Assembly (NCBI RefSeq): GCF_006345805.1
Contig: NC_042998.1
Coordinates: forward strand, 186,744,001-186,808,000
Origin: Octopus sinensis
Taxonomy: Eukaryota
Direction: 5' to 3'
Length of the DNA stretch: 64,000 nucleotides
Shown: positions 3,261-45,042 of the stretch, piece after piece
Numbering within the stretch: position 1 is the stretch's first letter
How the letters are laid out: the number at the start of each line of letters is the position of its first letter
Made by a program: the position numbers and the translations under genes
The notes under the pieces: generated by a model
What the model was told of the DNA's origin: nothing
Databases searched by the model: none
What the model saw: only the letters and a program-made list of their open reading frames with translations

Positions 3261-3742
3261 TCAGTGGTTACCGATGATGTTGACTTGTTCTTCTTTTCGG
3301 ATTATGGCTGTTGTTGCTTAGTGAGTGGGATTGACTCAGTGCATAGCCTTTCCTCACTTCAAAAAAAATCTTCTTGTACAGGCATTGCACGATAACAACC
3401 TTGTTCATGATTGTTGATGGTGCTGTGAGTCTCAACTGAATGGCTGGCTGTAGCCTTAAAAAGCAAATAAAAGTCACATTCGATCTCAGCACCAATAACA
3501 GTTAAGCTTCGTGCAATGGCCATACTCGATAACGAGGGGGCAGCCATCATGTATGTATGTACGTATGTATAATTGTACAATATATAAAACGGTTAGAAAT
3601 GATTAAATAACAGTGAATACTGGAAGTAGAATTATGATAAAGCAAATTAAGGATGGTGCTGAATAAATTCAAGAATAGGTTTATCTTTTGAATCATCGGA
3701 AACAGTCCTCTTTCTGAAGATTCGACAAATGAAACTGCAGTA

Positions 3743-4830
3743 CTGAAAGGTGTACTGAAAAGTTCATAGGATGACTATAGAGGAGTGATGCTAGAGCTGT
3801 GAAATCTAGCATGCGTTAATTTCAACTCTTTTATTAATAATTGCATTATTTCTTTCCGGGTAAACTGACATCTGACGGTTCAAAGAACACTTCAGAAGTA
3901 ACTAGTAGCGACTTCTTTTGAAAATCGACGAAACTTGGCATTGTGCTGTAACTGCAGAAAAAAGGCAAGACATTCATGCTGTGCTATATTAGGGGAGGAT
4001 GCTCCAGCTTTATCAACTGTGCAAAAGTGGGCAGCTGTATTTAGGAAGGGAAGGGAGAGCCTTGAAGATGACTCAAGGTCTGGACGTCCTGTAACTGTCA
4101 CCACCAAGGAAAAAATCGATTGCATTCATCACATGCTGAGGAATGGCAAGGGATTGACTATAAATCAATTAGCCAATGTTATTAGTATATCCCATGAGAG
4201 AATTGAGAATATTCTGCCTAATGAACTTGGCATGACGAAGTTTTCTGCTCGGAGGGTGGGGATGCCACGTCTTCTGACACCCGATCAAAAGCGTGCCAGG
4301 TTGATCACATCGTGGGAAAATCTGACATGGTTTGAGGCAGACCCAGCAGGTTTCTTTGAAAGTTTCGTAACCCAGGACGAGTGTTGGCGTCATCGCTTTA
4401 AGCCAGAAATAAAGAGACAATCCATGCAATAGAAATACCCATTCTCACCTGCACGAGAGTTGTTTCATCTGCAGGGAAGGTGATCGACTCAGTTTTCTGG
4501 GATGCAAAAGGCATTGTGTTAATTGACTATCTTCAGAAGGACCACGCCATCAATGGAGAGTACTATACCAACATGCTGAGGTAGCCACGAAAGGCTATCA
4601 AGATCAAACGCCCAAGAAAACTGACGAAAGGGGTCTTGTGTCATCAGGAAAATGCTCCAGGACACAAGTCTTTGGTTTCAATGGCTGATGTGCGTGAAAG
4701 TGGTTTTGAATTGGTTGATCATACTCCCTGTTCTCCTGACTGGCCCCACCCGACTATCATCTGTTTCCCGACATGAAAAACCTCTTGGCTGAGAAGCAGT
4801 ATCGCAGCGAAGATGACATCATATCTATTC
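3743..4830 (+). mobile_element. Mariner (DD34D-type) transposon, degenerate and 3'-truncated
   Basis: Left TIR follows a TA. ORF 3935-4432 has the HTH (STVQKWAAVFRKGRESLEDDSRSGRP), a WVPRLL-like VGMPRLLT and VTQDECW. Frameshifted remnants FWDAKGIVLIDY, HQENAP and SPD..PDYHLF follow. Confidence 0.9.
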
Positions 4831-5409
4831 GTATTTCACTCTTAGCTATTATTCGAACCTAAAGTCTATTTTGTATTCAGGCGAGTTATTGATTATGCTC
4901 AAGCTCATTTTTTACATCACTGCATTTTAAATGACTTAGGTAATCATTAATTAATCAATGGCATAAATATTGGCTTCAAATTTTGGCACAAGTCCAGCAA
5001 TTTCCGTTGAGAAACCTAGTCAATTATATCGACGCCAATTCTCAAATGGTACTTATTTTACCGATTCCGAAAGGACAAAAAGTAATGTTGATCACGGCGG
5101 TATTTGAACCCAGAACAGACGATATGCCACTAAGAATTTTGCCCGGTGCGCTGACGATTCTGCCATTTCGCCACTTTGTAGTCAGCGACATAAATATTAA
5201 ATCAGAAGGCTTTCGGACGAAATGCATTGCAGTTATTGAATACATTTTTTTAGATTCTGAACTCAATTCCTACCGAGCCCAGCTTTTCTTATCATCCTTT
5301 CAAGATTTCAGTAAATATATTGAAAATCAAATACTGAGATCGATTAAATCAACTGTTACCACTCTGAAAATGTGTGGTGTTGTGACTAAGTCGTTATTAT
5401 AAAGCGGGA

Positions 5410-5975
5410 AAAGGTGGTGAGCTGGCAGAAACGTTAGCACGCCGGGCGAAATGCTTTGCGGTATTTCGTCTGCCGCTACGTTCTGAGTTCAAATTCCGCC
5501 GAGGTCGACTTTGCCTTTCTGGGTCGATTAAATAAGTACCAGTTACGCACTGGGGTCGATATAATCAACTTAATCCGTTTGTCTGTCCTTGTTTGTCCTC
5601 TGTGTGTTTAGCCTCTTGTGGTTAGTAACGAATTAGGTATTTTCTGTCGTAACGTTCTGAGTTCAAATTCCGCCGAGGTCGACTTTGCCTTTCATCCTTT
5701 CGGGGTCGATAAATTAAGTACCAGTTACGCACTGGAGTCGATGTAATCGACTTAATCCGTTTGTCTGTCCTTGTCTGTCCCCTCTATGTTTAGCCCCTTG
5801 TGGGCAATAAAGAAGCAAGAATCATTAGCACGCTGAACAAAATGCTTTAGTAGCACTTCGTACGTTCTGAGTTCAAATTCCTCCGAGGTTGACTTTGCTT
5901 TACATCCTTTCGAAGTCGCTAAAACAAGTGCAATAAGATGGGAACTTGGGTCGATGTATTCGGCTTGGCCCCTCA
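5410..5975 (+). mobile_element. tRNA-derived SINE family B, tandem multimer
   Basis: Unit GGCGAGCTGGCAGAAACGTTAGC...GAGTTCAAATTCCGCCGAGGTCGACTTTGCC... repeated about 3 times, later copies lacking most of the head. Confidence 0.85.
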
Positions 5976-6635
5976 TTCGACAGTTAAATACTTTAAATGA
6001 ATATTTCTTTATAATACTTTTGAGTGGTTTCAATTTGCTATCGTTTTGATTCCACGGAGATTAAAGCCAAGTCATATGTTTATCTAAACGTAACATTGTT
6101 GCTAGTTAATAGTACTTTTGTTTAAACGTTATTTGAAATTTGCTTGATTATTTTGGCTTATAACATCTGACCTTAATACAACAGAAAATTGCATTAAATA
6201 CACATGGAATACTAAAATGAATGTAATCATACCACATCATATAAACGCTACACATGCAACATTGTGCCCGTGCGGTTACGGGTAAGAAGTTTGTTCGTAA
6301 CTGCGTGGCACTAGGTTCAATCGCACAAAGCGTAAACTTTATTCTAGTTTACTCTAGCTTAGCTTCGAGCTAATCAATATTTTGACCGTGGAATTTTAAC
6401 TACCGGTAATTATATGCAGGTCTTTCATGCACGCGTACGTGCACTGTCACAAATCACTCGATGTTGTTCACTGCAGTTTAGTTAAAGACAGATAAGGTCT
6501 GTCCTGAGTTGACTCTCTTAGGTTTTTCCCATTGATAATAGCTAAAGAACTAGAAGCATCGATGTCTGGGAATCCAACAGGGTGTGACACCGGTCAGATA
6601 TAGTGTTACAAACGTATCTTAACTAACCTAAAGTT

Positions 6636-6681
<46 letters not shown>

Positions 6682-6727
6682 GTTGCCAATTGATTTGAAA
6701 ATTTTTGTATTAATGGAAAACCTCTAT

Positions 6728-6818
6728 AATTGGCTGATGAGTACTCAGCATCTTAAATCTGTTGTAATACTTACAACATTTAATAAAATGATGTAGTACG
6801 AAACGATCGTACCAAATT
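6728..6818 (+). ncRNA. Type I hammerhead ribozyme with extended helix II
   Basis: CUGAUGA 6734-6740; helix II GUACU/AGUAC (6741-6745/6795-6799); GAAA 6800-6803; palindromic helix III ACGAUCGU; GUA cleavage after 6811; helix I UUGG/CCAA. Confidence 0.85.
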
Positions 6819-6998
6819 ACCGGAGTCATTCTTGCTGCTTTATATATATATATATATATATATATAACATTCATCATAGAACACACACTCAAATTTGAGT
6901 CAACGACTTTATATATAACACTATACCACCAAACATTTGATCATATATAAATATTACCATAGCTCTTAAACGTATAAATCATACATACATATATATAT

Positions 6999-7035
<37 letters not shown>

Positions 7036-7356
7036 TTAGTCGATTGTCTAGACAATCGACTAAAAATTCTAAAGCGTGTCATGCTACTAAAAATCTAAAT
7101 AAAATAAAATATCAATAGACTAAAAAAATTTCCTTACTCCCTTCAAACAAAAAAGTACGTCAAAAAGATTAATTTCATAAAACCATTTCATAAAACCATG
7201 GCATATATAGTGTTTACCGTCTGTGTTTCTTTTTTTTCTTTTTATTTCTGTCTCAATTTCATTTGAGCACTTCTTTTTTGCAGTCCTATAAATCCCTTTG
7301 TTTCCATAAAAAGAGACAAAAGTATTTCTTGTCACACACACACACACACACAGACA

Positions 7357-7434
<78 letters not shown>

Positions 7435-7567
7435 TTAATCAGCCGAAATTACTACGATGATCCGGTTCTTGACTGAAGACTGAGGGGTTCGAATGTCCTG
7501 TCCATGTTTATTGTGTCGTCTTCTAAGAGTTATACGTTCGTGTCCATGTTGTATTTTTCTACATACC

Positions 7568-7611
<44 letters not shown>

Positions 7612-8661
7612 CATACATATATACGTATATACGTGATATCCCATTGCGAACAGTTAATAGAATGACACACCCACACGGACACACACGCACACAGACGGGC
7701 GGACACGCGCACAACCCCCACCCCCCACCCATACCCCCTTCCACACAATATAAAAGTTGTCAAATTTCAGGACCTTACACTGTTTCCAGTTATTTGATCT
7801 CATTAGCTGCGTTTGTTCTTTACCCAAAGCGGTGGCTTTTCTTACACTTCTAGTTGATGTCGATTTGCTGGCCTGCTGAGAAGTGTCAGCGTTTTTATGC
7901 AAAATATTGATTTTATTCCTTAATATCGTCCAAGAGAAGACCACCGAATATGACCTTGACGTTGATGAACTATATGCAAAATGTAGAGAGATGATAAAAG
8001 CATGATGAATAAATAATAAAGATGACGGGGTATTTTCCATAAACTGTTTGAGTGGTTGTGTCGATTGGAAAATGAACTGTTGTCCTTCATTTAAACTTCT
8101 AAATAGACTCTGTGGTGGTGGTGGTGGTTGTGTGAAGTGATAACATTTTTGATTTAAAAAAAGGCATTAAAAAAGACCTTCATGAAATATGCAAAATAAT
8201 AATTATCAATGACTAGTATAATTAATTACATTTCTTTGATTTTCTGATGAGACTAAGATAAAACCAGACCACGCTCGTAGTTGTTCCTGTGTACTTGCTG
8301 ACAAAAATGAATATTGCATTATTATTGGGCTTACTTTTACCATCATACACATACAAAGATGGCCTCTAAATAGTCGCTCAATGTGCAATAGATAACAACC
8401 AAAGTCATTTCTCTCTTGATATTTTTTAATGCACCAGACATAAGGAGACACTTACTTAACTTGTAGTTTCCATATGGACGTCTGTGGGAGATCTTTCTTT
8501 CTAATTTCTGCCATTGGTTCTGAATGTCTTGTTTCTACAAGTCTTCAATTTCCTTCTTGCTATTTCCCCCATTTTACTCCGACATAACTTGACTAACTTC
8601 CTCACGTAAAACTCCGAGTAGTTATGCAGTAAGACATCAACAAAGCACAAGTAAACTCTAC

Positions 8662-8733
<72 letters not shown>

Positions 8734-8900
8734 ATATTATATATATATATATATATATATTGGATCCTTTTTTTCTCGTTTGCATTTCTAAATGTGAATG
8801 AGTATGTATGTGAGTGCTAGTAAATACACGCACACACACGCACGCACGCGCGCACGCACGCATGCGCACACGCACACGCACGATCACGCACGCACGCACA

Positions 8901-8941
<41 letters not shown>

Positions 8942-9238
8942 CTGCAGCATAGTCGCAGTCAAATGCCTGAAATAAGTAAAAGAAGAAAAGAAGAAAAGAA
9001 CATATACATCTACATACATATATATATATATGTGTGTGTGTGTGTAATATATGAATATATGCATATATACATACATATATGTACATACCTACATATATAT
9101 GTATATATAGATGCATATATGGGTACAGGACATAAAAAAAATGAGACAGAATGAGAAACGAGAACATACAACATAAAGAACATTCCCTTCATCAGTTGTC
9201 CCCTGTTTTTTTTACTCCGCGTTTCGAATATATATATA

Positions 9239-13456: not shown

Positions 13457-13529
13457 CGAGCTTGCCAGGATTCGAACCTGGAATCTTCTGATCCGTAGTC
13501 AGACGCGTTATCCATTGCGCCACAAGCCC
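13457..13529 (-). tRNA. tRNA-Arg-ACG: tRNA-Arg (anticodon ACG)
   Basis: 73 nt: GGGCTTGTGGCGCAATGGATAACGCGTCTGACTACGGATCAGAAGATTCCAGGTTCGAATCCTGGCAAGCTCG. Full cloverleaf, A and B boxes intact. Confidence 0.97.
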
Positions 13530-27954: not shown

Positions 27955-29421
27955 GGTTTAGGTCAATACCAAGAGAATTGTGTTGCAATTAGATAATTGC
28001 CTACAGAGCGGTACAGTCCCAGAGTGGATGGTAGAGGGAAGAACAACATTCTTAATGAAAGATCAGCCAAAGGGCAATGAGGATGGCAAATACCGACCCA
28101 TTGCTTGTCTTAACCTCCTATGGAAAGTATTAACAGGTAGCCTCGCAGGAAAATTACATACGTTCCTTGCGGGGAACAACCTTCTGCCAGAAGGACAAAA
28201 GGGATGCCGAAAAGGATCCAAGGGCACCAAGGACCACCTTGAGATAGACAAGGTTATAATGAATAACTGTAAACGGTACCAAAACAATTTATGCATGGCC
28301 TGGATAGACTTCAAAAAGGCTTACGACATGTTGCCGCATTCGTGGATTTGGAAAACATTCGACATGTGTAGAATAACTAAGAATGTGTGTGCACTGATTA
28401 AGAACAGCATGCCTAGTTGGAAAACGCGTCTTTCCTGTAACAACCAGCATTTAGCCGAGGTAACGATCGGAAGCGGTATCTTCCAAGGAGATTCTTGTTC
28501 ACCTCTGTTATTTGTTGTAGCTTTGATCCCACTTTCTGTAGTCCTACATAAAATCAAAGTGCAGTATGAGCTGACAAAGAACGGACCTCGTCTCAACCAT
28601 CTTCTCTCTTCATGGATGATTTAAAACTGTTCGCAAAATCAGAGCCTGAAATGGAGAGGCAGGTTGAGACTGTTAAAATGTGCAGCAAGGATTTAGGGAT
28701 GGAATTCGGTATCTCGAAGTGGGTGGTGCTTACTTTGAAGCGGGGGGAAAGAGTAAATTGTAGGGGCATAGAATTGCCAAACGGAGAGAGAATGGAAAAT
28801 CCGAATGATGATGGGTACAAGTACCTTGGGAGCTGGACTATATCACGCACAGAGAAATGAAAGACAAGGTCACCACTGCATATTTCAAGCGTATCAAACT
28901 TCTCTAGAAATCGAAGCTCAACTTAAGGAACCTTGTGACTGCCATCAACATATGGGCTGTTGCTTTAGTCTGCTATAGTGCACCCATCCTGAGATGGACA
29001 CAAGCAGAGATTGACCAACTCGATCGCACTACCCGAAAGACAATGACATTGCATGGTGCCCTCCACCCTAAGGCAAATGTTCACAGGCTCTACATGAAGA
29101 GAGGTAAGAGTGTACGTGGGTTGATTAGTGTACAGGAGTGGACAACAGTGAAAGCAGAAACATGGCAGAATATTTGGTAAACAACAAAGAAGACCTGTTA
29201 TAGTATGCTGCTAGTGCAGAAGGAGTTAACAAAAATGAACTGGAGAGTGCTCATGAATTCCGAACAAGAACAGCCAACGAGAGAGAAGAAACCCTACTCC
29301 GTATGGAATTACATGGTCAGTTCCACCATGAAACCAATAAATAGAAAGACCAGGAATCATCATGGAGGTAGATTAACAAGGATGTCCCAAAAAGAATACT
29401 GAAAGCCTTTTTAAGTTTCAA

Positions 29422-29486
<65 letters not shown>

Positions 29487-30140
29487 AGGAAAGTGTGACT
29501 TACATTGTTCGTGCTTGTGAAAATCTTGCGCAGAAAGAGTACAAGCGTAGACATGGCAAAGTAGCCCCAAACCTCCACTGGCTACTAAGCTATAAGTATG
29601 GAAATGAGGTTACGGGTGCTTGGTACCAACATACACCGGAAAAGGCAATGGACGAAAAGGGGAAGGCAAAAATCCCCTGGGGCTTTGATTTCCAGACAGA
29701 CAAACTGTTAGAGCACCGAAGACCGGATATAGTAGCCTTTAGGAGGAACAAACAAGAGTGCCTAACAATCGACGTAGCAGTGCCAGGAGATCAACACTTT
29801 ATCATGAAAGAAAGAGAAAAAGTTGATAAATATGGAGACGTGAAAATTAAGATCGCTAAGATGTGGCAGCTACGAAAGTCGAACATAAAGATTATCCCTA
29901 TTGTCATCGGAGCATTGGGTTCAATACCACCCAATCTGAAAAAACATCTGAAAACCTTAGAAACACCCTACAATCTAGATGTATTGCAAAAGTCGGCATT
30001 ACTTGGAACTGCACGCATATTGCATAAAGTACTGTCTGTCTGAGGTCCTTGTTGAGACTTGACAAACAGTACAAACACCCCGGTAGATACAATATCATGA
30101 TATTATATACTGTGCGACGTCTATAATGATGATGATGATG
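27955..30140 (+). mobile_element. 5'-truncated R4/Dong LINE (RT plus RLE) in a (TAA)n tract
   Basis: RT motifs YRPIACLN, WIDFKKAYD, GIFQGDSCSPLLF, FMDDLKLF and YKYLG. RLE motifs RRPDIV..IDVA, EREKVDKY and PIVIGALG. Frameshifted. (TAA)n at 27748-27953 upstream and a TAA/TGA tail downstream. Confidence 0.95.
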
Positions 30141-30548
30141 ATGAGGATAAAAATTCTATAGGGACAATGCCTAAAATTTTGGATGTAGGGACTGGAACGT
30201 ATTGTGGATGAAAGGCGAAGTGACTTTCGGCGGAATTTGAATTCAGGATTAAAGATGGACGAAAAGCCACTAAGCATTTTCCCGGCGTACAAATGATTCT
30301 GCCAGCTCGTGTATGTATGTATACGTACATACATACACACATTTCTTTTCTTTGAAGCATAGTTTACTGCCAATGTTTGTTTTCATCTCGAACAAATAGT
30401 TGAACGAAAATGCGAAATTTGTGAGACGAAGAAACTTGACAGCGAGCAAGTAATAAAAATTCATCAGATACATTTTTTAAAATCCGCATGCGCGCGCATG
30501 TGTGTGTATGTATGTGTATGTATGTATACGTGCGCGTGTGTGTGCATA

Positions 30549-30584
<36 letters not shown>

Positions 30585-31194
30585 GAGAAGAGGGAATTAG
30601 AGAAAACAAATTATCTTTTTAATTTTTTTTTTTTTTTTCGTTTCCCCCCCCCCCCAAGATAAAACGTAACAACGGGAAATGACACCGTCTCGAAGAACTG
30701 AGTGGTGACGTTGGAATGCAAACATAAACACGAAACTCCAATGTTGATATTTCAATCTTGTGAAAGATTTATAGAAAGAAAAAAAAGGCTGTGAAATTAC
30801 CAGTGGCAATTTTACTATCTCTATAATAAATAAAGAACCCGATTCGCAATACAATGGTTGTGGTAGTCGTCAACGTTGACACGCCTTCTTGAAAAGGTTT
30901 CATCGACATACATTATGTTTTATTAATGACTTCAGATTCCTTTCACAGTTTATATTTCAAAAATAATTTGTATTCTATTTTGCTAGCCCTAAACGGGTTG
31001 GCCTATATAAATAGTATTAGCTTCAAAAAGAATGAAACCTAGATTAATTCATTTTTATGCTTTGCCGCATAAATTAAGTAATACTTCTTGGTTCATAGAA
31101 CACGAATTCGTGTCAGAAAAAATACGTATAGTACTCTATGTTCTTTGGCAATCTAATTAACTTTGTTGGTTGTTTGGCTTGGAATTTAACTAAA

Positions 31195-31611
31195 CTAGCA
31201 GTATAGCCCAGCGTTGCTCGGGTTTGTTTTCTTTTCGACCCTTTAGAATTGGAATTTTTGAAAAATTTTGCATTGGAATTTTGAAAAATTTTGCATTATG
31301 TAGCTTGTTATTTTCTTTAAGTGAACATTTTTCTGGTTAAAATACACCGAAAAATGGCGACACAGCAGTTAAAAAATCGTAAAAAAATAGGGATTTTCAT
31401 AGAAAAAAAAGCACCTTTTTGAAATAAATAATTTTTGGTCTTAACATGGTCCGATTTGAATTTTATCTTCTACGGAATGAAGAACAAGCCTTCTTCTATC
31501 ATACTCTCAATTTTGGTCAACTTGCGCCGCAGGGTCTCGGAGGAGATAGTGTTAGTTGAAGGCTACCAAATCTGCCACACACACAGACAACTTCAGCTTT
31601 ATATATATAGA
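31195..31611 (-). mobile_element. Non-autonomous Helitron
   Basis: Minus strand A|TCTATATATATAAAG ... CCCGAGCAACGCTGGG hairpin ... CTAG|T. Confidence 0.8.
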
Positions 31612-32208
31612 TTAGGGAAACAGTATAGCCGCTTGTAAGACTTCATTCAGAATCACAGCGATGTTGAGTTTGTGTAGAAACTGCACTATAACTTTTCCAG
31701 CTGTGCGGAACGTTTCTGCTAATCTTAACCTCAATCGAGAAGTATTGGTTACAAATTTAACGACACTTGAAACAGATTATATGAAACATTTTATGAAACA
31801 GATTTTATATCAGTCATAGGTAAATTTCAGGACTTTCTGAATGGCACGCCTAACGAAAAATTATCTTAGATTTTTTTAGTAGTTTGGCCCGCATGATGAT
31901 GAACCATTTCTCATGAGGCTCACTTCCAGAGTTGTCTACCGTGCTTGTAAGAATAATCGGAACAATAATGGTCATTGACTCATCGTTGAATAAATCATTT
32001 TAGTACTGTATCTCGAAATGAATGCTAATTTTTTTTTAATTGCTTGTAATATATCCGGTTTAAAACCCCCATGGATGTAGAGGGGAGCCGATGACTACTT
32101 GCGGAACTCGAACCACTCATTTGTTGTATTCAATACAGATGTACTAAGCCAATTACAGTAAAATGATTTCTGATATCTTTTCTGTCAAACTTGAGGATTT
32201 GATCTTAC

Positions 32209-32282
32209 AAGGGAGAATGCAAGTCTGGCTACATTTTTAGAACTTATTTGAAGAAACTTCGACATGTTGATAAGAAAATCAG
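32209..32282 (-). CDS. Candidate internal exon (DFLINMSKFLQISSKNVARLAFSL)
   Basis: AG acceptor, GTAAGA donor, open frame, phase-compatible with 33152-33234. Confidence 0.3.
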
Positions 32283-33151
32283 CTTAACGATGTATTTTAA
32301 AGTGAATACCGCAATAAATAGTAATATGTAATATATTGGTTTCAAATTTTGGCACAAGGCCAGCAATTTCAGTAATCAACTTATCCCTCCCTTAAAACTG
32401 CTGACCTTGTGCTAAAATTTGAAATCATTTCATTGAGCTGAAAATATTTTCGATGGAAAATAAGCCTAACGGGACTCGAACTACACACTTTCTGTGGTAT
32501 CTTTTCCTCATCAATAATATTTCCACTTAATTTTTTTACTTCTGGTTGCATTGTAACACTAACTTGACTATCATTTTTACAACGGATGACGTCCCTGGGT
32601 AAACTGTTTCAGTAATTTATCTCCCCAAACCTGTTAATTTTTATGCCTATTTGTGTAGATAATTTTATATCACTTAAAGATTATGCCACCATTATTTCAG
32701 TAAGTACGGTAAAATCTATATTTAGATGACGAAGATTAATAACGTCTAAATATGTCTTGAGTTGTCTCCCGTACTAATATAATATTGTATTTTTTCACTG
32801 CGTTATTTTTTCCAATTATCTCATTAATTCTCCCGATATCTGTTGTGATTGCACTAAACTGACTTTCATATATTCAGGTTGGCATTAGTCATTTAATCTG
32901 TTAGTACATGTTGCTCTATGTAGTCCAGGAATTGTATGTTGCTATGGAATTTTATTCATATAATTATCATATCGTTCCTTGAAAATATGATATGAGATGT
33001 TTATTTTGATTGTATCAGAAAACAGAATATGACACTGGTATAAGTTACTGCATTTTGACCTATATTTTCATCTGCACCTTTAGATTTGAGCGATAAAATT
33101 AATATGTAGCTGAAAGCGATGAGACGTTGAACAGAGAAACGGAACGTTTAC

Positions 33152-33234
33152 ATTCTATCTTTTGGAAGAGGACCTTTGAACATTTAGCATCTTTTTCCAT
33201 GGGAATGTTGATGTGGTGTACTTTTATTTCTTGC
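33152..33234 (-). CDS. Candidate internal exon (QEIKVHHINIPMEKDAKCSKVLFQKIE)
   Basis: TTTCAG acceptor, GTAAAC donor, open frame. Confidence 0.28.
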
Positions 33235-33693
33235 CTGAAATATTTTCTGAATGATAGCCTGGTTTCTTATACATGACATTACTCTTCGGTTTTTCAACTA
33301 AACCAATTCCAGTTACAGGGCGTATTTATTTCATAACAAGACAGATACTCCATCTGTTTCAGTAACAGCATCTAAAGTATGGAGTTTACGTGAATTTCAC
33401 AGGATTATGAAAAGAGTTCAATATGTCTAAGAAATTATTAATTCTCTTTGAAAATGGAGGTTTCTTTATACTAATGATATACTTTTACATTGGTTTGTAA
33501 TACGTGTATAAGACGAGTATGAATCGTTTGCTCAGCGCTTCAACAAAAGATTTTGGTGATGACTTCAAAATTGCTTCTGTCAGAGTTTACAAAATGCGTG
33601 TAAGAATTGATTGTCCTAATTCTGTTCATGTTCAGACACCAGCAATTCCTAGAATCTGATTTAATAAAAAGAATCTGTCTGTCTGTCTATCTG

Positions 33694-33805
<112 letters not shown>

Positions 33806-33812
33806 TCTCACA

Positions 33813-33850
<38 letters not shown>

Positions 33851-34049
33851 GACACACACACATACGCGCTCGCACACACGTATTGCATTAAAATAGGCAT
33901 ATATGTATCGTACTTAATATAAATACATCGCTTATAGCAAATTTACTGCGGTATTCATGATATCAGTCAATAAGAGATGTTTTCGGAAGAATACTGCAGT
34001 AAATTTGCTTTAAGCGATGTATTTACATTAGGTATTTTAAATAGACAGT

Positions 34050-34081
<32 letters not shown>

Positions 34082-34126
34082 CTCTCTCCTCTCTCTCCCT
34101 CTCTCTCTCTCTCTCTCCCTCTCCAC

Positions 34127-34184
<58 letters not shown>

Positions 34185-34358
34185 GTTTATATATTTGTTT
34201 TGCAAGAATATTGATGTGAAATCGTGTGTTGAAGCTGATGTTGTTGTATTTAGGAATGGTCATTTTGCCAGTTTAGCCAATAAAAACACACGCACTATAT
34301 ATTTGGTGTTAATTTGCTTCAGCTTTATCTATTTTTTACATTAATCTTAATCTTATTT

Positions 34359-34404
34359 CGGCCAGAGTTCTTTCGTCACACTCCTGTGACCTCATCAGTG
34401 GTCC
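34359..34404 (-). ncRNA. Minimal type I hammerhead ribozyme
   Basis: GGACCA CUGAUGA G GUCACA-GGAG-UGUGAC GAAA GAAC UC^ UGGCCG. It has a 6-bp helix II, one extra G after A9 and helix I CCA/UGG. Confidence 0.75.
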
Positions 34405-34959
34405 TTTGATTTCTTCTTTCTTATTTGTGTGTCTCTCCTTACTAACGATCAGCCATTTTGTATTTTGTATTCCTATTGTATGTGTTTTTATTTGCGCATT
34501 CGTATACTCCTATGTGTATCTATGTTTAGTTAGTGTGTGTGTGTGGGGGGGGGGATGGAAGTGCCTATAATATTAGTATCTCCTGTTTATACACGTTCAT
34601 GTAATTTGTTTTTTGTTTATTTTGTTCGTGTGTTTACACCTATTTATTATTATTTTTTTGTATTTAATTAATTTTTAAAAATTTTGTTAATGTATATAGT
34701 TATTTAATTCCCTTTGTTTATCTGTGTATTTTATTATATATATATATATATATATAATATATATATATATATATACAAGATAAGAAAATGGAGAAATTTG
34801 TGGTAAACCATTTTACCTTTGCCCATATAGTACAGTAAATGAATTGATTGCATCGCAATCATTAACATTTATGTATTAACTTTGTTGGGTACTTCACTAG
34901 CAGTATATTGGATATATGTCATCCCATGGAGGGTTGCATTTACAACCCCTATCTCAATT

Positions 34960-35021
<62 letters not shown>

Positions 35022-35719
35022 ATATATATATAACCTGAGAAAGGTTACGAATACAGTATTTCGTCCTCTGACTAAACTATCAGAAAAAGACAAATATCGG
35101 AAAGAAATACAATAGTTGATATAGAAACTATTACATCGTAAGGAACTTATTAATTATATCACATCCTCTTAATGAATAAAAGAAAATTACGTTTCTAGCT
35201 AAAAAAAGAAAGAAAGAAAGAATAAATTACTTCAATACTTCAATAAATCCAACGTTTATGATTCCTACGCATTACACATGTCTGTTTATTATGAGTAACA
35301 TGGTTGTTGGTAAATTAAATAAAAGAAATCCAGAGCATTATCTGAAAAAGATACCATTGTTGAAAGTGAAGAAAATATCAGGAGATAAAACATTCTTAAA
35401 TAGAAATAAAAAATATATAACCATAACGTAAAAGGGCAATTATCATTTACATTATCGTTAAATAGAGTATTCATATTTAGTATGTATGACATTTATACTA
35501 TGATCCACATTGTAATATTACTCTGAAATCAATTGCAAATACATTTGATATTTAAATGAGACTCGAATGAAGTGAAGCAGAATGAGTGAAGGGCATTTCC
35601 GGTGAGCTGTTCTCTCTACAAAATTAACGTAGATAATCTAAAGAAGAAAGATTTACAGTATGAATTTGGAACAAACAGTTTATTTTAGTCACTTAAGTTA
35701 TTTATTCCAAATTTGAACT

Positions 35720-36169
35720 GGGATCTTTTCGGTTCGAACGGCAGTTTTTTAAAATAATTTCCACGTAACTAAACACTTTTAAACTTCGTATACTGGTAGA
35801 ATGTGTTTATAAAACATCTTTTTCTCTTGGCTTTATTGAGAAAATTCTATAGTTTGTAAGATATTTGTTGTTCTTTTTTTTCTTCAATTTCTGCAATTTC
35901 AACTAATCAATGACGTCTAATTGAGGTGAAAACATTCTGTGTCGTATGAAAATGTCTCTCGTTTAAGAAACAGATTGGGTTTATTTACATTTCTGAAGAA
36001 AAAAGATACCCTTCCCCCTACCCATAACCCTAGCCCTAACCCTAACCCTAACTAACCCTAACCCTAAAACAGATTGAAATGCAATAGATCGATACTAGGG
36101 TCATAATTATGGGTGACAATTTCATATGACACCGCTAGAAAAAACTGCCATTCAAACCGAAAAGATCCC
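35720..36169. mobile_element. Unclassified MITE with 6-bp TSD and internal (CCCTAA)n
   Basis: TIRs GGGATCTTTTCGGTTCGAACGGCAGTTTTTT and AAAAAACTGCCATTCAAACCGAAAAGATCCC. TSD TGAACT on both sides. Confidence 0.85.
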
Positions 36170-36223
36170 TGAACTGTATAACTTTGTTCATTACTATATC
36201 TGCGTAGACACACAAAACCTCAC

Positions 36224-36360
36224 AACCATCTCCAACGAATCTATTATCCAGCGTTCAAAAGTCAGAGTACCCGATTCTTTTTGTTGTGCTCCACCGAATT
36301 TTATTTTCGTAAGGGCTACTACAGCCCGCCGGTGCTGCTTCCCCTTTGTTTGGATGTATG
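36224..36360 (-). CDS. Candidate internal exon (YIQTKGKQHRRAVVALTKIKFGGAQQKESGTLTFERWIID...)
   Basis: Strong acceptor TTGTTGTTTTCAG, locally higher GC and an open frame. The donor is uncertain (GTGAGG at 36223). Confidence 0.3.
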
Positions 36361-36467
36361 CTGAAAACAACAATGTTCAACGCCTGAGTGCTTTGTACCT
36401 GCTTTTAGCTAATTATATATCGTCCATCAATTACGGAAAATGGATCCCAATGTAAACAAGATTAACC

Positions 36468-36698
36468 TATTTCTTAACTACCCACAAGGGGCTAAACACA
36501 GAGAGGACAAACAAGGACAGACAAACGGATTAAGTCGATTATATCGACCCCAGTGCGTAACTGGTACTTAATTTATCGACCTCCGAAAGGATGAAAGACA
36601 AAGTCGCCCTCGGCGGAATTTGAACTCAGAATGTAACGGCAGACGAAATACAGCTACGCATTTCGCCCGGCGTTCTAACGTTTCTGCCAGCTCGCCAA
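36468..36698 (-). mobile_element. SINE family B
   Basis: Reverse complement of the unit at 23659. Confidence 0.88.
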
Positions 36699-37279
36699 GA
36701 TGTGAAACATTGCACCAGAAAACCAAAATATTACATTGATGAAATAGAGGTGAAAATTGAAACATTATATTACGTGAGTATATCGTACTTATTTATGAAT
36801 ATTTTATACTTGATTTTAACTGAAAAAAAACTTATTCACTGAGCACAGCTAAACTACGAAGGGGAAAAAATTGTATCAAAATTTAACATTAAACTAGGGA
36901 TGCGACACGAGTGTGATTTATACATGAGTAAATACGGTAATAATATAAGTTCTTCAACAATTTATAACATTAAGAAACAAAAATTCTGGGTTATGCAACT
37001 TGTAGCTCATTCAGAAGCAAGGAAAAGTATTTATGTGCAGCAAATATAAAAAAGAAATTAATCAAAACTAGTACTGAATGCAGTATTTTTTAAGTGGTTA
37101 TTGCAAAGTGATTCGAGGTATGTGGAATTTAGGGACAACAGTCATTAAAAAGAGCAAGAAACTTTGAACTACAACATGGCGTTCAAAAAAAAAAAAAAAG
37201 AAAAAAGGAAAATTTCCGTTCCAACCACCCTGCAAAGTCGATTGATATTCAAAGCGAAATTAAAAGTTGCAATATTATT

Positions 37280-37618
37280 CTTTTATCTGTTTCAGTCACT
37301 TGACTGCGGCCATGCTGGAGCACCACCTTTAGTCGAACAATTCGAGCCCAGGTCTTTCTATCGGTTTTGTTTTGCCGAACCGCTATGTTATAGGAACGTG
37401 AACACACCAACATCGGTTGTCGAGCGACGGTGAGAGACATATATATATATATGCGATGGGTTTCTTTTAGTTTCCATCCACCAAATCCACTCACAAGGCT
37501 TTGGTCGACCCGAAGCTATAGTAGAAGACACTTGCCCAAGGTGCCACGCAGTGGGACTGAACCCAGTGCCATGTGGTTGGTAAGCAAGCTACTTACCAAA
37601 GAGCCACCCCTGCACCTA
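37280..37618 (-). mobile_element. SINE family A
   Basis: Reverse complement match to 10460-10920. Confidence 0.85.
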
Positions 37619-37796
37619 TAATAAAACTGTAATTAAATAATTGTAGATGTAAACTGCATTTATATCTCGCCTTGGTTAACTTTGCTTCTCATCTCTCTGG
37701 ACATGGATGTAGTGAATTACCAATTCAGTACTGGGTTCGCCCGTATCAAAACAGCCCTTTATTCTAAAATTGTTCGTCATATTCCAAAAAATTAGC

Positions 37797-37830
<34 letters not shown>

Positions 37831-38037
37831 TCACCGGAGAAATTGGTTGGTGGCATTCCTTCCGGTATCACGCTGAGTTCAAATTCCGCTGAGGTCCACT
37901 TTGCCTTTCGTCCTTTCAATGAAACAAGTACGAGTTGAACACTACGGTCAATGTAATCGACTTAGCCCCTTCCTTTTAGCCTTCTGCCAAAATTTAAAAT
38001 TATCATCATGATCATCATTATTATTATTATCATTATC

Positions 38038-38548
38038 ACCCAGAGACCTCAAGAGACAACAGGTTGGAACTCATGTTGTTGTTATGCCTAGTATGCCATA
38101 TATTTGGGGGGGGGGGTTGTGTTGTACTAGTGAATGTCTAAAAAAAAACAAAATTATATTTGTTTTAAACCTTGAGATTACATAGAAAGTATTCTGCGTA
38201 GGATATGAACAGTTCCCATGAGCACTGTCTTTTGAATTTCTGCCATTATTGGGTTTCCTGGTATCTGAGTTAGGTAGCAATCAGCCCCTTTTGCTATCAT
38301 TCCCAGGGCACCTATGACAACAGGTATTGTTTTAGTCTTCAGGTTCCACATTTTGCTGATTTCTATTTCAAGATCTTTATATTTGCTCATTTTTTGGTAG
38401 GTCTTGACAGATACGTTTATATCGATTGGGACAGTCATATCAATGAGGAGGCGTGTTCTTTGTCTGAAGTCTTTCAATATGATGTCTGGCCTATTTGCAT
38501 CTATCTTTCTGTCAGTTTGAATGGTGAAGTTCCAGAGGAGTGAGATGT
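38038..38548 (-). mobile_element. R4/Dong LINE 3' end (RLE)
   Basis: ORF 38178-38477 reads LLIDMTVP..KMSKYKDL..IPVVIGALG. Near-identical to 45350-45870 and flanked by (TTA)n. Confidence 0.9.
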
Positions 38549-39272
38549 TATTATTGTTATTATTATTATTACCTTTGCACAGCTTCTAAAGCTGGAGATG
38601 TACAACAGTGTCAGCTGTTCACTACCAGTGATCTAAGGTAACACCTCTATGTGCGCGACATGGTGATCTCATATCAAGATAAACAGCACATGCAGGTGGG
38701 GCTCATTTTCTTCTGGTCGAGTAATCCACCCTGCTCAAAAAGTCCCTGAATAAGGGTTGTTTATGGATGTTGAACGAAACACCTATGTTTCCAGAGGTGA
38801 ATTATTCAAACCCCAAAGAATCCCTCTCAACACATGGCTATGATGCTCCCCCACTACTTCTGCTCGTGATCAGAGATGCACATATCATCTACCTACTACA
38901 TCGCAAGGATTTATTGGCAAGAAACGAAAATCATACATTAAAAAATGTGACCTAAATTTATTGATCTTTGCGATATTCTCCCGTTTACTATCACTTAAAA
39001 TTTATTTTTCCATGTTTACAACTGGGTTAGTTTTGGTGCAACAAAGCAATCGATTTTCCCTTTCTAAAACTTCTCCCATCTCAGAATCTGTAGTTCAAAC
39101 GAAGATTTGGTGGAGGGAGAAATCCTGCTAATCAATACAGCCTTCGTAACGAGTGAGTGGTTAAATAATTGGCCTCCAGACTACAGAATTGTGAATTCAT
39201 ATCATGCCCTAGATAATTTGTTGAGTTGTGAATGAAGAATCTCTTGCCTTAATTTATTTGGATGTAGAGCTT

Positions 39273-39680
<408 letters not shown>

Positions 39681-39744
39681 GGGGGGACTGTAAAATGAAG
39701 AGTAGGCTGGTGATTAAAAGTGCTGAGAGATCGATCCAACTCAC

Positions 39745-39913
39745 AGAAGAAGGAATGAATGCTGACTGAGTAAAGAACTGACAGGCGTTACGGACTGAAA
39801 TGAAAACTGGCTGCAGTGTTATATAAACAGATGAATAATGGTGTATCTTCCAGCAAATAAACTTGTTGAAGTTTTTGTTGGATTGTTCGCTTCCGTATCT
39901 TTGCGCATAAAGT
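39745..39913 (-). CDS. Candidate internal exon ([28 protein letters not shown]...AFIPSS)
   Basis: TTGTTTAG acceptor and consensus GTGAGT donor. Only one of three frames is open across 169 nt. Confidence 0.4.
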
Positions 39914-40224
39914 CTAAACAATATGGTGGTGGTTCCGACGTTCACTCATGTATGAAAAGTATGAAATAGAGGGAGGAGAAGAAGACGGTACAATAAAGTG
40001 GGAACACACGCACACACACACACACACACACAACACACACACATACACATATAGTGTTTGTATGCGTGTTGTTGTAGTTGTTGTCCTTGTGTGTGTGTGT
40101 GTGTGTGTATGTGTTTGTGTGTGTGCGGTAGGCGCAGTAAAAAGTAACAGGGACGCATACATAGAAAAAGAAGATGGATAAGAGAGAAGGAGAAGGGGAG
40201 GAAGGGAGAGAGAGAGGGAGAGAA

Positions 40225-40452
40225 AGGAAGAAGAAGAAGATGATGATGATGAAGCAGGTGGAGGAGGATGAGGAGGAGGAGAAGAAGAAGAAGATGATGA
40301 TGATGATGATGAAGCAGGTGGAGGAGGAGGAGGAGAAGAAGAAGATGATGATGATGATGATGAAGCAAGTGGTGGAGGAGGAGGAGGAGGAGGAGAAGAA
40401 GATGATGATGATGATGATGAAGCAGGTGGAGGAGGAGAAGAAGAAGAAGAAG

Positions 40453-40482
<30 letters not shown>
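40225..40482. repeat. Higher-order compound repeat [(GAA)n(GAT)n GAAGCAGGTG (GAG)n] x4
   Basis: Four units visible directly. Confidence 0.9.
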
Positions 40483-40483
<1 letters not shown>

Positions 40484-41165
40484 GAGTCGGGAGATAAAGT
40501 GAGATTGTGAGACGTAAAGAAATGAAAAGACTTGTTATATATGATTGATGTGGAATGATGTGAGATATATAGGCCTCCATCACGTTCATTATTAAAACAA
40601 ATTAAAAAAAGTCAAGTCAGAAGACTTATTGTACATGTTTATCTAAATCTAACACAATGGAACACACACACACACCACACGTGTGTGTGTGTGTGTGTGT
40701 GTGTTTGTGATTGTGTATTATTATAAAGTAGGTCTATTTCTCTGACCTAGTTCATTTACATATATATACGTGTGTGTGCGTGGGTGTGTATATATATATA
40801 TATATATATATATGTTTACTTTATGTCAGAGATTCTCCTTGTTTTGTACACCACAACTCTGTAAGTAACCCGCCAACTGCACTTACAATGAAACGCAAGT
40901 GTCGGAATATCCGTTGTTATATAATCGATATTACGAAACACGACTACATGAAATTATTTAATGATTTTTTTTTAATTGACTGCTTAAGGACATATTATAG
41001 TATATATGTTTTCTTTTATTAATTCCAGCTATCATTACCAACGTTTGGTTCCGTTATCTCATCTGGCATTAATGTTTGCGACCCAATTTTATTGACTTCT
41101 GTGTAAAAGCAAACAATTAAAAATCATGCTATCATTGTGTTATGTCACGTTATTGCATAATGTTA

Positions 41166-41548
41166 CTAGCAGTATCGCCCGGCGTTGCTCAGGTTTGTAA
41201 GGTAAATAACTATAAAGCATTTTTAGAGAGTTATAGCCAAAAAATAGCAAAAAAATGGGAAAAAAATTATGGTAAATTTTTTTTGAGAGTTAAAAAAGGT
41301 GGAGATGCGTCCCCTAGACGGTCTGTGGTTTGGGTTTCTGATTCTCGACCCCATGTCGAATTTATCGATTTTTTCAGAACTGGGGGAACTTTTCAAAATT
41401 TTCGCTGCGTTAGTTTTGAATTATGACATTGGGCTATGTGTGTGTCAAGTTTCATCAGAATCGGTTGAAAGCCGTGGTCAGAGTGAGGGTACGAGAAAAC
41501 AGACACACAGAAAACGCACAGACAAACTGCCGTTTATATAGAGAGAGA
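41166..41548 (-). mobile_element. Non-autonomous Helitron
   Basis: A|TCTCTCTCTATATAAACGGCAG ... GAGCAACGCCGGGCGATACTGCTAG|T. Confidence 0.8.
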
Positions 41549-41900
41549 TTACGTACAGGCTAAGAGTAGCAGCTTGGCAGAATCGTTAGAATGTCGGGGA
41601 AAAGATATCTTGCTGTATCTTTGCTGGTTCCTTTAACCTCCTGTGTTCAAATTCCGCCGATGTCAACTTTGTTTGGCATCTTTTCGTGATCGATAAACTA
41701 GACTTAAAAGATGTGACTTATTTCCCCTTGGCTTTGTCTATACACACCGAACCAAACAGAAGCTTTTTTTCCCCTTTCTTTCTTTCAAATTTATATACGT
41801 GTTAGTCCGAATGAATTCTACTGTGCCGACTTTCTATCAAGGATTCGTCTTCTCAAGAACTGCATCTATTCATTTGCGTCGTTTTAGTCTCTGACCTCAT

Positions 41901-41964
<64 letters not shown>

Positions 41965-41968
<4 letters not shown>

Positions 41969-42262
41969 CGTGATCACCGTGACCGACCAGGCTATCAGAT
42001 GTTGTTACACATCGCTGGTCACAATGCGTTTCGCATTGTTTTAGCCTTTAGAAGACGCCACCCCGCTGGCTAAGCGAGCAGGCCAACAGAAGAAAGAGTG
42101 CGAGAAAGTTGTGGCGAAAGAGTACAGCAGGGATTCCCACCACCCCCTGCCGGAGCCTCGTGGAGCTTTAGGCGTTTTCGCTCAATAAACACTCACAACG
42201 CCCGGTCTGGGAATCGAAACCGCGAGTCAGCCGCTCTAGCCACTGGCCCATTGCGCCTCCAC
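41965..42262 (-). mobile_element. SINE family C
   Basis: Head GTGGAGGCGCAATGGGCCAGTGG, shared with 62698. Confidence 0.8.
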
Positions 42263-42281
42263 ACACACACACACACACCAC

Positions 42282-42335
<54 letters not shown>

Positions 42336-43911
42336 ATGCATAATAAACTTTTCCTCATACATCTCTGCACATAAAACCTTGCTAACACCTCAGAGTTTTC
42401 GTTTACTCATTGTTACCGAAGTTGTTATAGTGTACGTTACTCATTTACGTTGTCCTACATTTTGGAAAGTTGATTTTAGGAACAAGTGTCTCTGTTCGCT
42501 TTATACTTTATACTTTACTGCTACACTTTATACTTTAATCTCCCCCCGCAAAGCCAAAACAGGTTTCACATCCCTAATCTAGACATTATTGTGTCATTCA
42601 AACCATCAAAAATGCAGTGAATTAGTGGTTAGCCCGCTGGAAACTAGAAACGATATAAAATAGATTCTATCATCCAAGTGTCAAAATACTCTCCTACATA
42701 GTCGTTTTCAAGCAATTGCTAGAGTCTCTGTTTTCTACATGCGACTTCTAACGATCGTGTGGTTTTACACAGTGGTTCTCAAACTGGCAAGTACGAATTA
42801 TTTTCCCTGTTCCAGCCCTTATCAATGAGGAGAAAAAAATAGAGTGTCCAAACGTATAATTCTTCTTTCTTTACTATGATGTTAAACAAGTTTAAAAATT
42901 TGAAACACCATCTTTATATTAAACATGGCTGGCTGTTCGTCTAGATTTTCAATCCTCACAGATGTTACTTCTTGTGGAGAGGGATCAGTGAAGATTGAAA
43001 ACTAAGAAACACTAGTTTATCAGACACCTCTTCATATCTATCTTGTCTTCTCTGAGCACTCGTATGGTTTCTGTGAGGCAGAGGATGGCATATTTTAACC
43101 CTTTGCCTGTCCTCTGTATTACATGTGATACACAAAACATATTTCCCTGACGTCCATGCATCATATATGATACACATTCTCAATTTTTTCAACCAACAAA
43201 TTAACTTGGGACTCATAAAAGAACGAGAAGAAGAAGCGCGGGCAAACGGCGGGAGCAACTCCGACTCTCTCTTGCTGGAGTAGCAAGTAGTCAGTCAGTC
43301 GTTCGATCGGTCTCAGTAGCAGTTGGCAGCTGCTGCAGCGGCGGCTACGATCGAGACCACGAGTGTGTGTGTCCGTGTGTTATCGACGTATGACACTGGG
43401 GCTAACTCAAATTCCAAAAACAAACAAGGATGTTTATAACAAACTTATGAAAATGATTTAAACAAAGGGTTAAACACTGTTCCCCAATCAGAACTGCAGT
43501 CTGTTGCCACCTATGCCTAAGATGATTTCACCGATTTTAGAAAGTTTTCAAAAGTTATAGGCTTTGCCCCGCGTTTTCCATCAAAATAATATACCAAGAA
43601 CCAGCAAGAAACTTCTAAGGGGTTCGATTAGCAAGAAATAACAACCAATCTTAATCGTACTTAATAAATAAGTACGATTTATTCAACTAAATCTTCAGGG
43701 CGGTGCTCCAGCATGGCCGCAATCACATGACTGAAACAAGGTAAAAGATAAGATAATGCAGTCGCAGGTATTTGAAATAAATAAGACAGGATTGTCATGG
43801 CTGGAATGCTTCAACTCATAGGCCTGCTTTATTAGGGCTGGCCTAAAAGGCTTAATGATAACACACACATGTTTGTATTTGTCTATGTAACACATCACCG
43901 AAGATATATAA

Positions 43912-44419
43912 TCTATATATATAAAACTGTAGTTGTGTGAGTGTCTGTCCCCTTCGATTTAGATTCCTAACTACTCCCACATTTTGCGGTGCAGTTTAAC
44001 CAAATTCGGGTATCTTATAGTCGTGATTCATATCGAGCCCGTCTGGCTATTAGCGCGCGTCTACGATGAGTCTACGATTTTAAAAATAATTTAACATCAT
44101 TTTTTATTCCATTTTAATGCATAATTTTTCGTGGTCGATGCGGCGGAGTTGGCGTCCATGGTCCCACCTGCACCTGTTTGCTTCTTCCCCCTTCTTCCCT
44201 CCCTCGTGAAGCTGTAGGGAAGGGAGTGTAAGGAAATCAACGTCGTAAAGCGTTGTCAAGACCAGCGTTCTTTTAGAACAACGACTTCATGGCTTAAAGA
44301 CACCAAACAGAAATGGCTAAGAAAGCCCGAATTGGCATCTATAAGGGAAGTAACTCTCTAAAAATGCTTATATAGTTATTTCCCTTACAAACCCGAGCAA
44401 CGCCGGGCAATACTGCTAG
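43912..44419 (+). mobile_element. Non-autonomous Helitron
   Basis: A|TCTATATATATAAAAC ... CCCGAGCAACGCCGGG hairpin, then CAATACTGCTAG|T. Confidence 0.85.
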
Positions 44420-44829
44420 TAAATTATAAATTTATACACTGAGAGGTTTCGCTAATTATAGCTATTAGGTTTCACAATTGATGTTTTCCGATCGTATATC
44501 TAATGAATTTGGCTCTGCGAATTTCATTTCATTAAACTATATTCGAGTAGATTAGATTGTAGTTTGTACAGACTTAGGGCGGTTCGTGATGTTATATTAT
44601 AATGAAGTGACTCACCCAAAAGACAGATACAACAGAAAAATCTATGACTTGGCATATTGAAGTATATCGAGTTGACATGTTATACACATATGACAAACGG
44701 GAAAAGAAATAATGTCAAGGTTTCTAGAACTGTTTGATGTATAGTAACAGAAATATTAGCTGTAATTATATTGACGATAACAACAACAAAAACAACAATA
44801 ACAACAACAACATCACTAATAATAATAAT

Positions 44830-45042
44830 GGTTTCAAATTTTGCCACCAGGGCAGCAATTTTGGAGGAGGTAATGAGTGAATTACATCAACCCCAGTGTT
44901 CAACTGGTACTTATTTTATCGATCCTGAAAGGATGAAAGGCAAAGTCGACCTCGGCGGAATTTGAACTCAGAACATAAGGATGGCCGAAATACCGCTAGG
45001 CATTTCGTTCGGTGTGCTTACGATTCTGCCAGCACGCCATCT
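44830..45042 (-). mobile_element. Older SINE family B variant
   Basis: GATGAAAGGCAAAGTCGACCTCGGCGGAATTTGAACTCAGAAC core. Confidence 0.75.

Follow-up and report, generated by a model that had tools for sequence, protein, structure and literature searches.

A type I hammerhead motif with a long, conserved helix II arm in a truncated Penelope-like element assigned to the Hydra clade

Both strands of the 64-kb window, that is, the whole stretch of 64,000 nt that was analyzed, were searched for type I hammerheads in which 3 bp or more close helix II, with 2 bp or more in helix III and 3 bp or more in helix I. A single match was returned, the site at 6734-6811 on the forward strand. Its core consists of the box CUGAUGA (C3-A9, 6734-6740), the closing pair of helix II, G10.1-C11.1 (6741/6799), the box GAAA (G12-A15.1, 6800-6803), the A15.1-U16.1 pair (6803/6810) and A17 at 6811, which belongs to the triplet GUA and 3' of which the cut is predicted. 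Helix I is 4 bp long (UUGG 6730-6733 / CCAA 6812-6815) and was identified by the scan and by covariation. CUGANGA, GAAA, the A15.1-U16.1 pair and an NUH triplet, the hallmarks of type I, are thus all present, and sequence and strict scan confirm the canonical core, G10.1-C11.1 included, that a first-pass annotation had described. Judged by its sequence, the site is a hammerhead motif with an intact type I core and predicted self-cleavage. The two core boxes are separated by 59 nt (6741-6799). Helix III, which the earlier account had omitted, comprises only ACG/CGU around 2 nt, forming the palindrome ACGAUCGU at 6803-6810; in folding calculations it provides 2-3 bp in the monomer versus 8 bp in a double hammerhead. 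In sister subfamilies the palindrome is ACAAUUGU or ACGAUUGU.

The layout of canonical tertiary-stabilized hammerheads, with a 6-bp helix I whose loop contacts loop 2 of a 4-bp helix II, was absent from the motif. Among its representatives helix I measures 4-6 bp without a conserved extension, and no loop 2 lies close to the core. A conserved U1.7, which we take to be the position for a minimal tertiary contact, was sought among the representatives and not found. The motif agrees with minimal hammerheads of Penelope-like elements (PLEs) in its pLTR location and its short palindromic helix III; a helix II of ~3-8 bp with a short loop was not found, the arm being 59 nt long. A search of the 64-kb window with Rfam at gathering level returned a tRNA only, and at E≤10 there were zero hammerhead matches in 6500-7000, so that standard scans do miss the motif, as had been anticipated. 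This is expected for a 59-nt arm and weakens membership of the library, not the mechanism. A loose core pattern gave one match in the window, which 23 of 100 shuffles equaled, so that by itself it is no better than chance, and folding of the whole 161-mer was unremarkable against shuffles (z=-1.46). It is the family that argues against a chance match: tight patterns found 513 genome matches for the window's subfamily (one of those listed belongs to another family) and 2,912 for the sister subfamilies, with 0 in the control in both cases.

Further features of the window include a second long-arm hammerhead motif at 48361-48285 (-), with a 58-nt arm and a helix I of UGCAG/CUGCA, which represents a sister clade that shares this design and is more distantly related. 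A hammerhead-core motif with an arm of ~86 nt and the palindrome ACAGCUGU lies at 49699-49595 (-); its family recurs among the genome matches with 61-91-nt arms, and it overlaps one arm of the inverted repeat I3 (49366-49601 / 51146-51381). Short-arm or degenerate hammerhead-core motifs at 3714-3742 (+), 49184-49216 (+), 7473-7497 (+) and 34398-34371 (-) are probably the ends of other PLE families. The tRNA found by Rfam has the anticodon ACG (13457-13529, -), and tandem SINE copies occupy 5478-5803. The translation of the ORF at 3902-4432 (+) is presumably a mariner-like transposase fragment, and those at 27962-30043 (+), 38178-38585 (-) and 45821-46630 (-) we take to be RTE-like LINE fragments.

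The hammerhead lies in 161 bp (6680-6840, +) that copy comparison delimits between two (TA)n target tracts at 6639-6679 and 6841-6866, both of which had been noted before. In a DNA search of the 2.72-Gb genome with this sequence, the best 40 of 1,692 candidates were scored, and all 40 were full-length with 98-100% identity. The 28 closest copies, a set picked for closeness, show 0-3 differences each, and the window copy departs from their commonest letter at two columns (6689 and 6835), suggesting a young element. Its 3' end lies 29 nt past the cut site, ~8-12 nt before the point where copies usually stop. The last TATA of the left tract also matches the element (CTCTATA-ATG in other copies), which is likely microhomology at the 5' truncation. 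At the 30 closest loci the shared sequence extends 0-773 nt farther upstream, several of them with an inverted partner, and the longest extensions of related copies enter a GIY-YIG endonuclease (EN). Because other copies continue upstream and the window contains no ORF of this element, we interpret the 161 bp as the 5'-truncated 3' end (pLTR) of a PLE. By this comparison the window copy is an ordinary truncated insertion and not a stand-alone ribozyme unit; the 160-bp "unit" of the first-pass annotation does not hold as an entity, given the extensions into the endonuclease and full elements such as L067 and L197. Its proposal of a PLE-type hammerhead is supported.

Searching with the endonuclease yielded at least 150 matches, from 100% down to ~62%. 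At L067 two same-strand hammerheads lie 4.6 kb apart with an ORF between them. Two loci of the window's own subfamily (L196, L197) have the order pLTR-leader-ATG-RT-EN in interrupted form, and L193, from a sister subfamily, carries an intact 947-aa ORF with RWK, DKT, YRDD, CxCX5C, CxxC and CxH. The single ORF with RT and C-terminal GIY-YIG that characterizes EN+ PLEs is accordingly present at L193 and interrupted at L196 and L197, and partial tandem pLTRs, an inverted 5'-truncated partner and an optional 3' tail all occur among the copies. As in the Hydra clade, RWK, DKT, CxCX5C, CxxC, CxH and insertion into (TA)n were found, and a CCHH motif was absent on reading the ORF sequence. Look-alikes of the ORF in the Atlas fall into HTH_animal, GIY-YIG and RVT_1 clusters at 0.95-0.98, these families being carried mostly by a minority of cluster members; Pfam gave no RT or GIY-YIG match for five ORF pieces. 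Assignment to Naiad was rejected, as the EN is C-terminal. The element can thus be placed in the Hydra clade by its motifs and by a comparison by eye with the published alignment (Fig. S7 text) rather than by a tree. The ORFs at L193, L194 and L195 measure 916-1124 aa, more than the published Hydra ORFs, and Asn-rich low-complexity inserts flank their RT thumb region. Directly 5' of the ATG at L196:680-735, L197:850-905 and L067 near 5362, CTTAAC or CTTAAT followed by CAACAAG resembles a candidate branch point and 3' splice site. PLEs keep 5'-UTR introns.

The helix II arm (6741-6799, +) was delineated by scan, alignment and folding. The alignment places helix IIa at 6741-6745/6795-6799; it is followed by a conserved 3' bulge, U6794, and by helix IIb, for which the sister subfamilies have in common the register CAGCA 6746-6750 / UGAUG 6789-6793 with one G-A mismatch. 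The middle of the arm is AU-rich and variable, with no common register among representatives, and the alignment supports a terminal hairpin at 6760-6767/6771-6778 with a UAC loop. A long helix II had been proposed from the outset and stands, but two of the segments listed for it, UUAAAU/AUUUAA and the terminal hairpin, both use A6778, so that one of them must be a pair shorter. Likewise, the proposed GCAUC/GAUGU is the energy-favored IIb register in the window copy but not the one found across sister subfamilies, in which U6794 is bulged. Folded by itself, the arm reaches -13.2 kcal/mol (z=-3.46 relative to 200 dinucleotide shuffles), and z is at or below -2 in 12 of 21 clade representatives and above -2 in the other nine. 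Throughout the clade the arm measures 57-60 nt, CA/UG in IIb is nearly invariant and the terminal hairpin is conserved, the arm length staying fixed while the endonucleases diverge to ~60%. Fifteen loci (L064-L078) were chosen by endonuclease similarity (62-79% to the query) and not by ribozyme; 12 of them have, downstream of the EN, an intact core whose arm is 57-60 nt long, which L071, L072 and L075 lack.

Copy number and compensatory changes in helix II were determined as the first-pass annotation had suggested, and conserved structure was found among the genomic relatives. The 109 matches fell into 16 clusters, from which 14 representatives were aligned after two near-duplicates had been set aside. 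Over the 20 pairs of helices I, IIa and III and the terminal hairpin, 92.5% of 279 cells were paired. Two-sided change was seen in eight of the 20 pairs. None of 500 shuffles attained the score, and slid controls gave 25-52%. Among the same representatives two-sided change affected two of four pairs in helix I, one of three in helix III and three of five in IIa, which is partly fixed by the pattern. The three helices that surround the core, helix I being the open one, have support from covariation. Part of this set had been chosen with a search pattern in which the core and the bases at either end of helix II are fixed, making the test partly circular for IIa, and the structure tested was itself derived from these sequences. 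The terminal hairpin is free of pattern selection and showed two-sided change in two of eight pairs, with 82% paired. IIb, likewise free of such selection, has its five pairs formed in 16, 20, 13, 20 and 18 of 21 representatives with several pair types, where the bulge size was picked per sequence as the best of four. G10.1-C11.1 is replaced by G-U, A-U or U-U in 14 of 21 representatives. RNAalifold, run on the subfamily representatives, did not recover the hammerhead fold and gave the terminal hairpin and a decoy only. On these alignments, arm length and pairing are conserved across subfamilies via compensatory changes.

The arm itself is kept folded; it may dock a protein or may merely be tolerated. 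The strongest rival to a working arm accepts the same element and origin and has the arm jobless, a tolerated distal insertion in which an AU-rich fold-back accumulated and self-pairing was kept to spare the core. We regard this as a serious contender, at a little under even odds. Stem II of engineered ribozymes accepts large inserts, conservation is lacking in the middle of the arm, and unrelated families in the genome have arms of 38-86 nt and wholly different sequence. Related Hydra-type families do well with arms of 16-23 nt (L127, L128; File S2, PMC8557442). A jobless arm sits poorly, however, with a length fixed at 57-60 nt in the face of the endonuclease divergence, and with the conserved bulge after IIa, the near-invariant CA/UG and the conserved terminal hairpin.

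Genome-wide, patterns requiring a 4-nt palindrome center matched 2,347 sites with arms of 8-29 nt (control 43), 21,472 with arms of 30-60 nt (control 76) and 7,761 with arms of 61-91 nt (control 55), giving a strict long-arm total of 29,233 against 131. Looser patterns, with some double counting, gave 71,491 short arms (control 8,430) and 65,884 arms of 30-60 nt (control 13,928). A long-arm share of ~90% was dropped, since the pattern behind that figure demanded the 4-nt palindrome center and the looser patterns disagree. Taken as pattern matches and not as curated ribozymes, long and short arms appear to be comparably abundant in the genome, and ribozyme censuses based on Rfam or on short stems can miss a class about as numerous here as the short-armed one. 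At 20 loci of other families, unrelated long arms adjoin a Hydra-like EN or RT in five cases (L111, L112, L113, L115, L116) and a 16-nt arm does so at L127; at the remaining loci no ORF match lay within the sequence examined. Of six unrelated arms whose folding was tested, five have z <= -2. Head-to-tail repeats of ~550-600 bp, each with a hammerhead with a 26-nt or 70-85-nt arm and in arrays that are back-to-back inverted, occur at L126 (G000:C1:73486500-73490500), G000:C1:18221705-18225984 and G000:C1:122755272-122759593 and are candidate non-LTR retrozymes.

Nearest-neighbor folding assigned the active secondary structure 4e-6 of the ensemble for the monomer 6680-6840, ~1e-4 for 6700-6840 and 2.5e-5 for the monomer of a sibling copy; the model omits core tertiary energy, and such fractions serve as relative guides. 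Two predicted decoys are favored over the active fold by 4-8 kcal/mol. A helix of CCAAUU 6686-6691 with AAUUGG 6728-6733 (+) hides the 5' strand of helix I and is strengthened by A6689, which is private to the window copy, 26 of 28 siblings having C. A hairpin of GUACGA 6796-6801 with UCGUAC 6807-6812 (+) buries G12, A13 and the cut site; it is also predicted in the consensus of the 14 subfamily representatives with one-sided changes only and, given that no two-sided change was seen, may be an accident. The double hammerhead gains ~12 kcal/mol over two active monomers, and its active fold is predicted to be a minor species of 1e-4 or less in the window's subfamily and to reach 0.4-0.6 in L106 and L096. 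No second copy of this hammerhead was found in the 64-kb window as a dimer partner, and circular folding of the 6686-6811 monomer gave no hammerhead-like structure. Dimeric PLE hammerheads were reportedly studied by Lunse et al. in 2017. Contigs of runs guessed to be RNA are deeper 3' of the cut site, and two large unlabeled runs rise likewise, the ends themselves being invisible. One contig (L031:824, run X4) folds back at the helix III palindrome with an inverted junction at the hammerhead, which reflects either a genomic inversion or a library artifact.

Because helix III is a short palindrome of the dimer type, the decoys win and a private change strengthens one of them, the activity of the window copy is doubtful, and by itself it is likely inactive. 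It had been put forward as the site most likely to be an active ribozyme, and it is indeed the only strict match in the window, but its low predicted occupancy of the active fold and the lack of a partner copy count against that proposal. An efficient monomeric ribozyme in which tertiary contacts between the arm and helix I compensate for the short helix III seems improbable. All core residues are canonical with G10.1-C11.1 present, a conserved bulged U sits five pairs up helix II, presumably the site of loop-2 contacts in canonical hammerheads, and the sister subfamilies L096 and L106 are much nearer the active state (1-3% as monomers). However, a 4-bp helix I without conserved extension or loop, a palindromic helix III, the 4-8 kcal/mol advantage of the decoys and the frequent replacement of G10.1-C11.1 all speak against it, and efficient cleavage would destroy the templates, yet the motif is kept intact in the copies.

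The ends of inserted copies bear on this point. Of 30 ORF-start copies of a sister subfamily, 29 could be oriented; 23 run through an intact hammerhead, six begin 34-206 nt past the cut, and none starts at the cut site. This set contains two duplicate pairs, and four copies are limited by the edge of the reference. Because no inserted copy starts at the cut site, uncleaved RNA is the likely template. In the window's subfamily, 32 of 51 3'-end rows lie at +33 to +41 and 17 at +116 or later; of these far ends, 13 coincide with the edge of the reference and have flanks that stop near +137. The other two rows are the window copy (+29) and a mis-hit. Both classes of 3' end adjoin TTATAAT in the element, from which we infer priming by pairing with nicked (TA)n. 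That the 160 bp are instead a non-autonomous retrozyme or SINE-like element moving as a small circular RNA is very improbable and already largely refuted: (TA)n does flank them on both sides, tandem hammerhead repeats do exist elsewhere in the genome and animal retrozymes have been proposed to derive from pLTRs (bioRxiv 10.64898/2026.07.22.740005), but neither the window unit nor any of the 30 closest loci shows head-to-tail tandem units each with a hammerhead, neighboring copies are inverted, 5' ends are scattered over 0-773 nt upstream, and the cut site is not where the unit begins.

Our preferred reading, to which we give a probability of roughly 0.7, is that the 161 bp are the 5'-truncated end of a Hydra PLE inserted into (TA)n, and that the hammerhead is likely a normally-off ribozyme dependent on a dimer or on protein, the window copy being a likely dead by-product. 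Family, architecture, target, arm length, covarying pairs and copy ends are observed; the steps of the mechanism are inferred from them. RNA of the partial-tandem type pLTR-ORF-pLTR would be made; the endonuclease would nick (TA)n, and the nicked end would prime reverse transcription at UUAUAAU motifs. Priming ~37 or 137 nt downstream of an uncut hammerhead would give the short and the "tailed" 3' ends, and early termination would leave a copy such as the 161 bp in the window. The short helix III and the GUAYGA/UYGUAC decoy may keep cleavage rare and templates intact, and occasional cleavage would release an RNA whose AUG is preceded by a leader of ~190-207 nt. In the weakest step, selection would keep the arm folded, most likely because the element's protein uses it as a handle for docking or folding, a role that we propose tentatively and at something like one chance in three.

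A bolder version makes the arm a protein-sensing switch in several Hydra-type lineages: the RT-endonuclease of the element would bind the 40-90-nt arm and convert the decoy into the cutting fold. We consider this unlikely. Such a switch would choose between a "template for insertion" (uncut) and a "message for translation" (cut, with a 200-nt leader), and some 30,000-50,000 motifs would constitute a large hidden ribozyme population, probably present in other genomes too, as a class missed by short-stem descriptors. The role of the hammerhead in PLEs is an open question (PMC8557442, PMC11167929). Protein-assisted cleavage could be tested directly in a clade like this one, which has a conserved, covarying arm of ~60 nt, many naturally occurring subfamily variants, 3' ends that are precise, and ORFs that are intact. 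No account of the long-arm class was found in a search, outside Repbase, Dfam and subscription journals, of the literature on octopus or long-helix-II PLE hammerheads; the long arm appears to be a new structural variant of the Hydra PLE hammerhead, of which an earlier description may exist.

The published octopus member of the C-terminal EN+ Hydra clade is Hydra-1_Obim (Craig et al., 2021, PMC8557442), which, judged by eye, is a family separate from the window's element. Like that clade (PMC8557442), our elements have RWK, DKT, a CxCX5C linker, CxxC and CxH around the catalytic E/N and no CCHH; an RT followed by GIY-YIG, (TA)n targets and inverted 5'-truncated partners; and a type I hammerhead with palindromic helix III near the 3' end. 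In contrast, all 26 Hydra rows of File S2 have arms of at most 24 nt (a helix II of 3-7 bp with a 3-10-nt loop), compared with 57-60 nt here, and the sister subfamilies have a repeat unit of ~4.6-4.8 kb versus less than ~3 kb published, together with Asn-rich ORF expansions and a long 3' UTR.

Minimal type I PLE hammerheads (Cervera and De la Pena, 2014, PMC4209133) likewise lie in pLTRs with a helix I of 4-5 bp and a palindromic helix III, occur mostly as single truncated copies with opposite-strand pairs 100-700 bp apart, and share the predicted dependence on dimers, monomers of metazoan PLE hammerheads being inactive and dimers weak. Their "larger than usual" helix II, however, measures 6-8 bp, and their top counts are ~4,000-9,000 per genome, versus tens of thousands of 30-90-nt arms here. 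Poseidon PAc of the green anole (Frangieh et al., 2024, PMC11167929) also has two classes of 3' end past the hammerhead (the "tail") and uncut RNA as the apparent template; the anole PLE hammerhead needs its protein in order to cleave, and insertion in vitro can do without the hammerhead (PMC11167929). Poseidon PAc differs in that its ORF starts inside stem II, whereas here the AUG lies ~190-207 nt past the cut, in that its tail is 30-40 bp and not ~100 bp, and in that its initiation is non-homologous to the target, while the ends here abut TTATAAT, which matches (TA)n.

Animal non-LTR retrozymes are type I and of a similar order of abundance (126,247 motifs in the axolotl), but occur as tandem repeats, make contacts between loop 1 and loop 2 and have circular RNAs (PMC7229834). 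The type I hammerheads in the 5' UTRs of chryso- and fusariviruses lie upstream of an ORF, as does the upstream pLTR copy here, but their "long helix II" is 6-8 bp, helix III is long and the monomers cleave (PMC13725137). A long helix II is found in PLE-X1_sMoe and PLE-X1_sTam of spike mosses (PMC8557442, File S2), two isolated EN-minus families of plants that are marked there as departures from the canonical structure and for which File S2 gives no covariation or copy-number evidence. With its helix II of 53 nt, the arm of PLE-X1_sMoe is the nearest precedent for the long arm described here.
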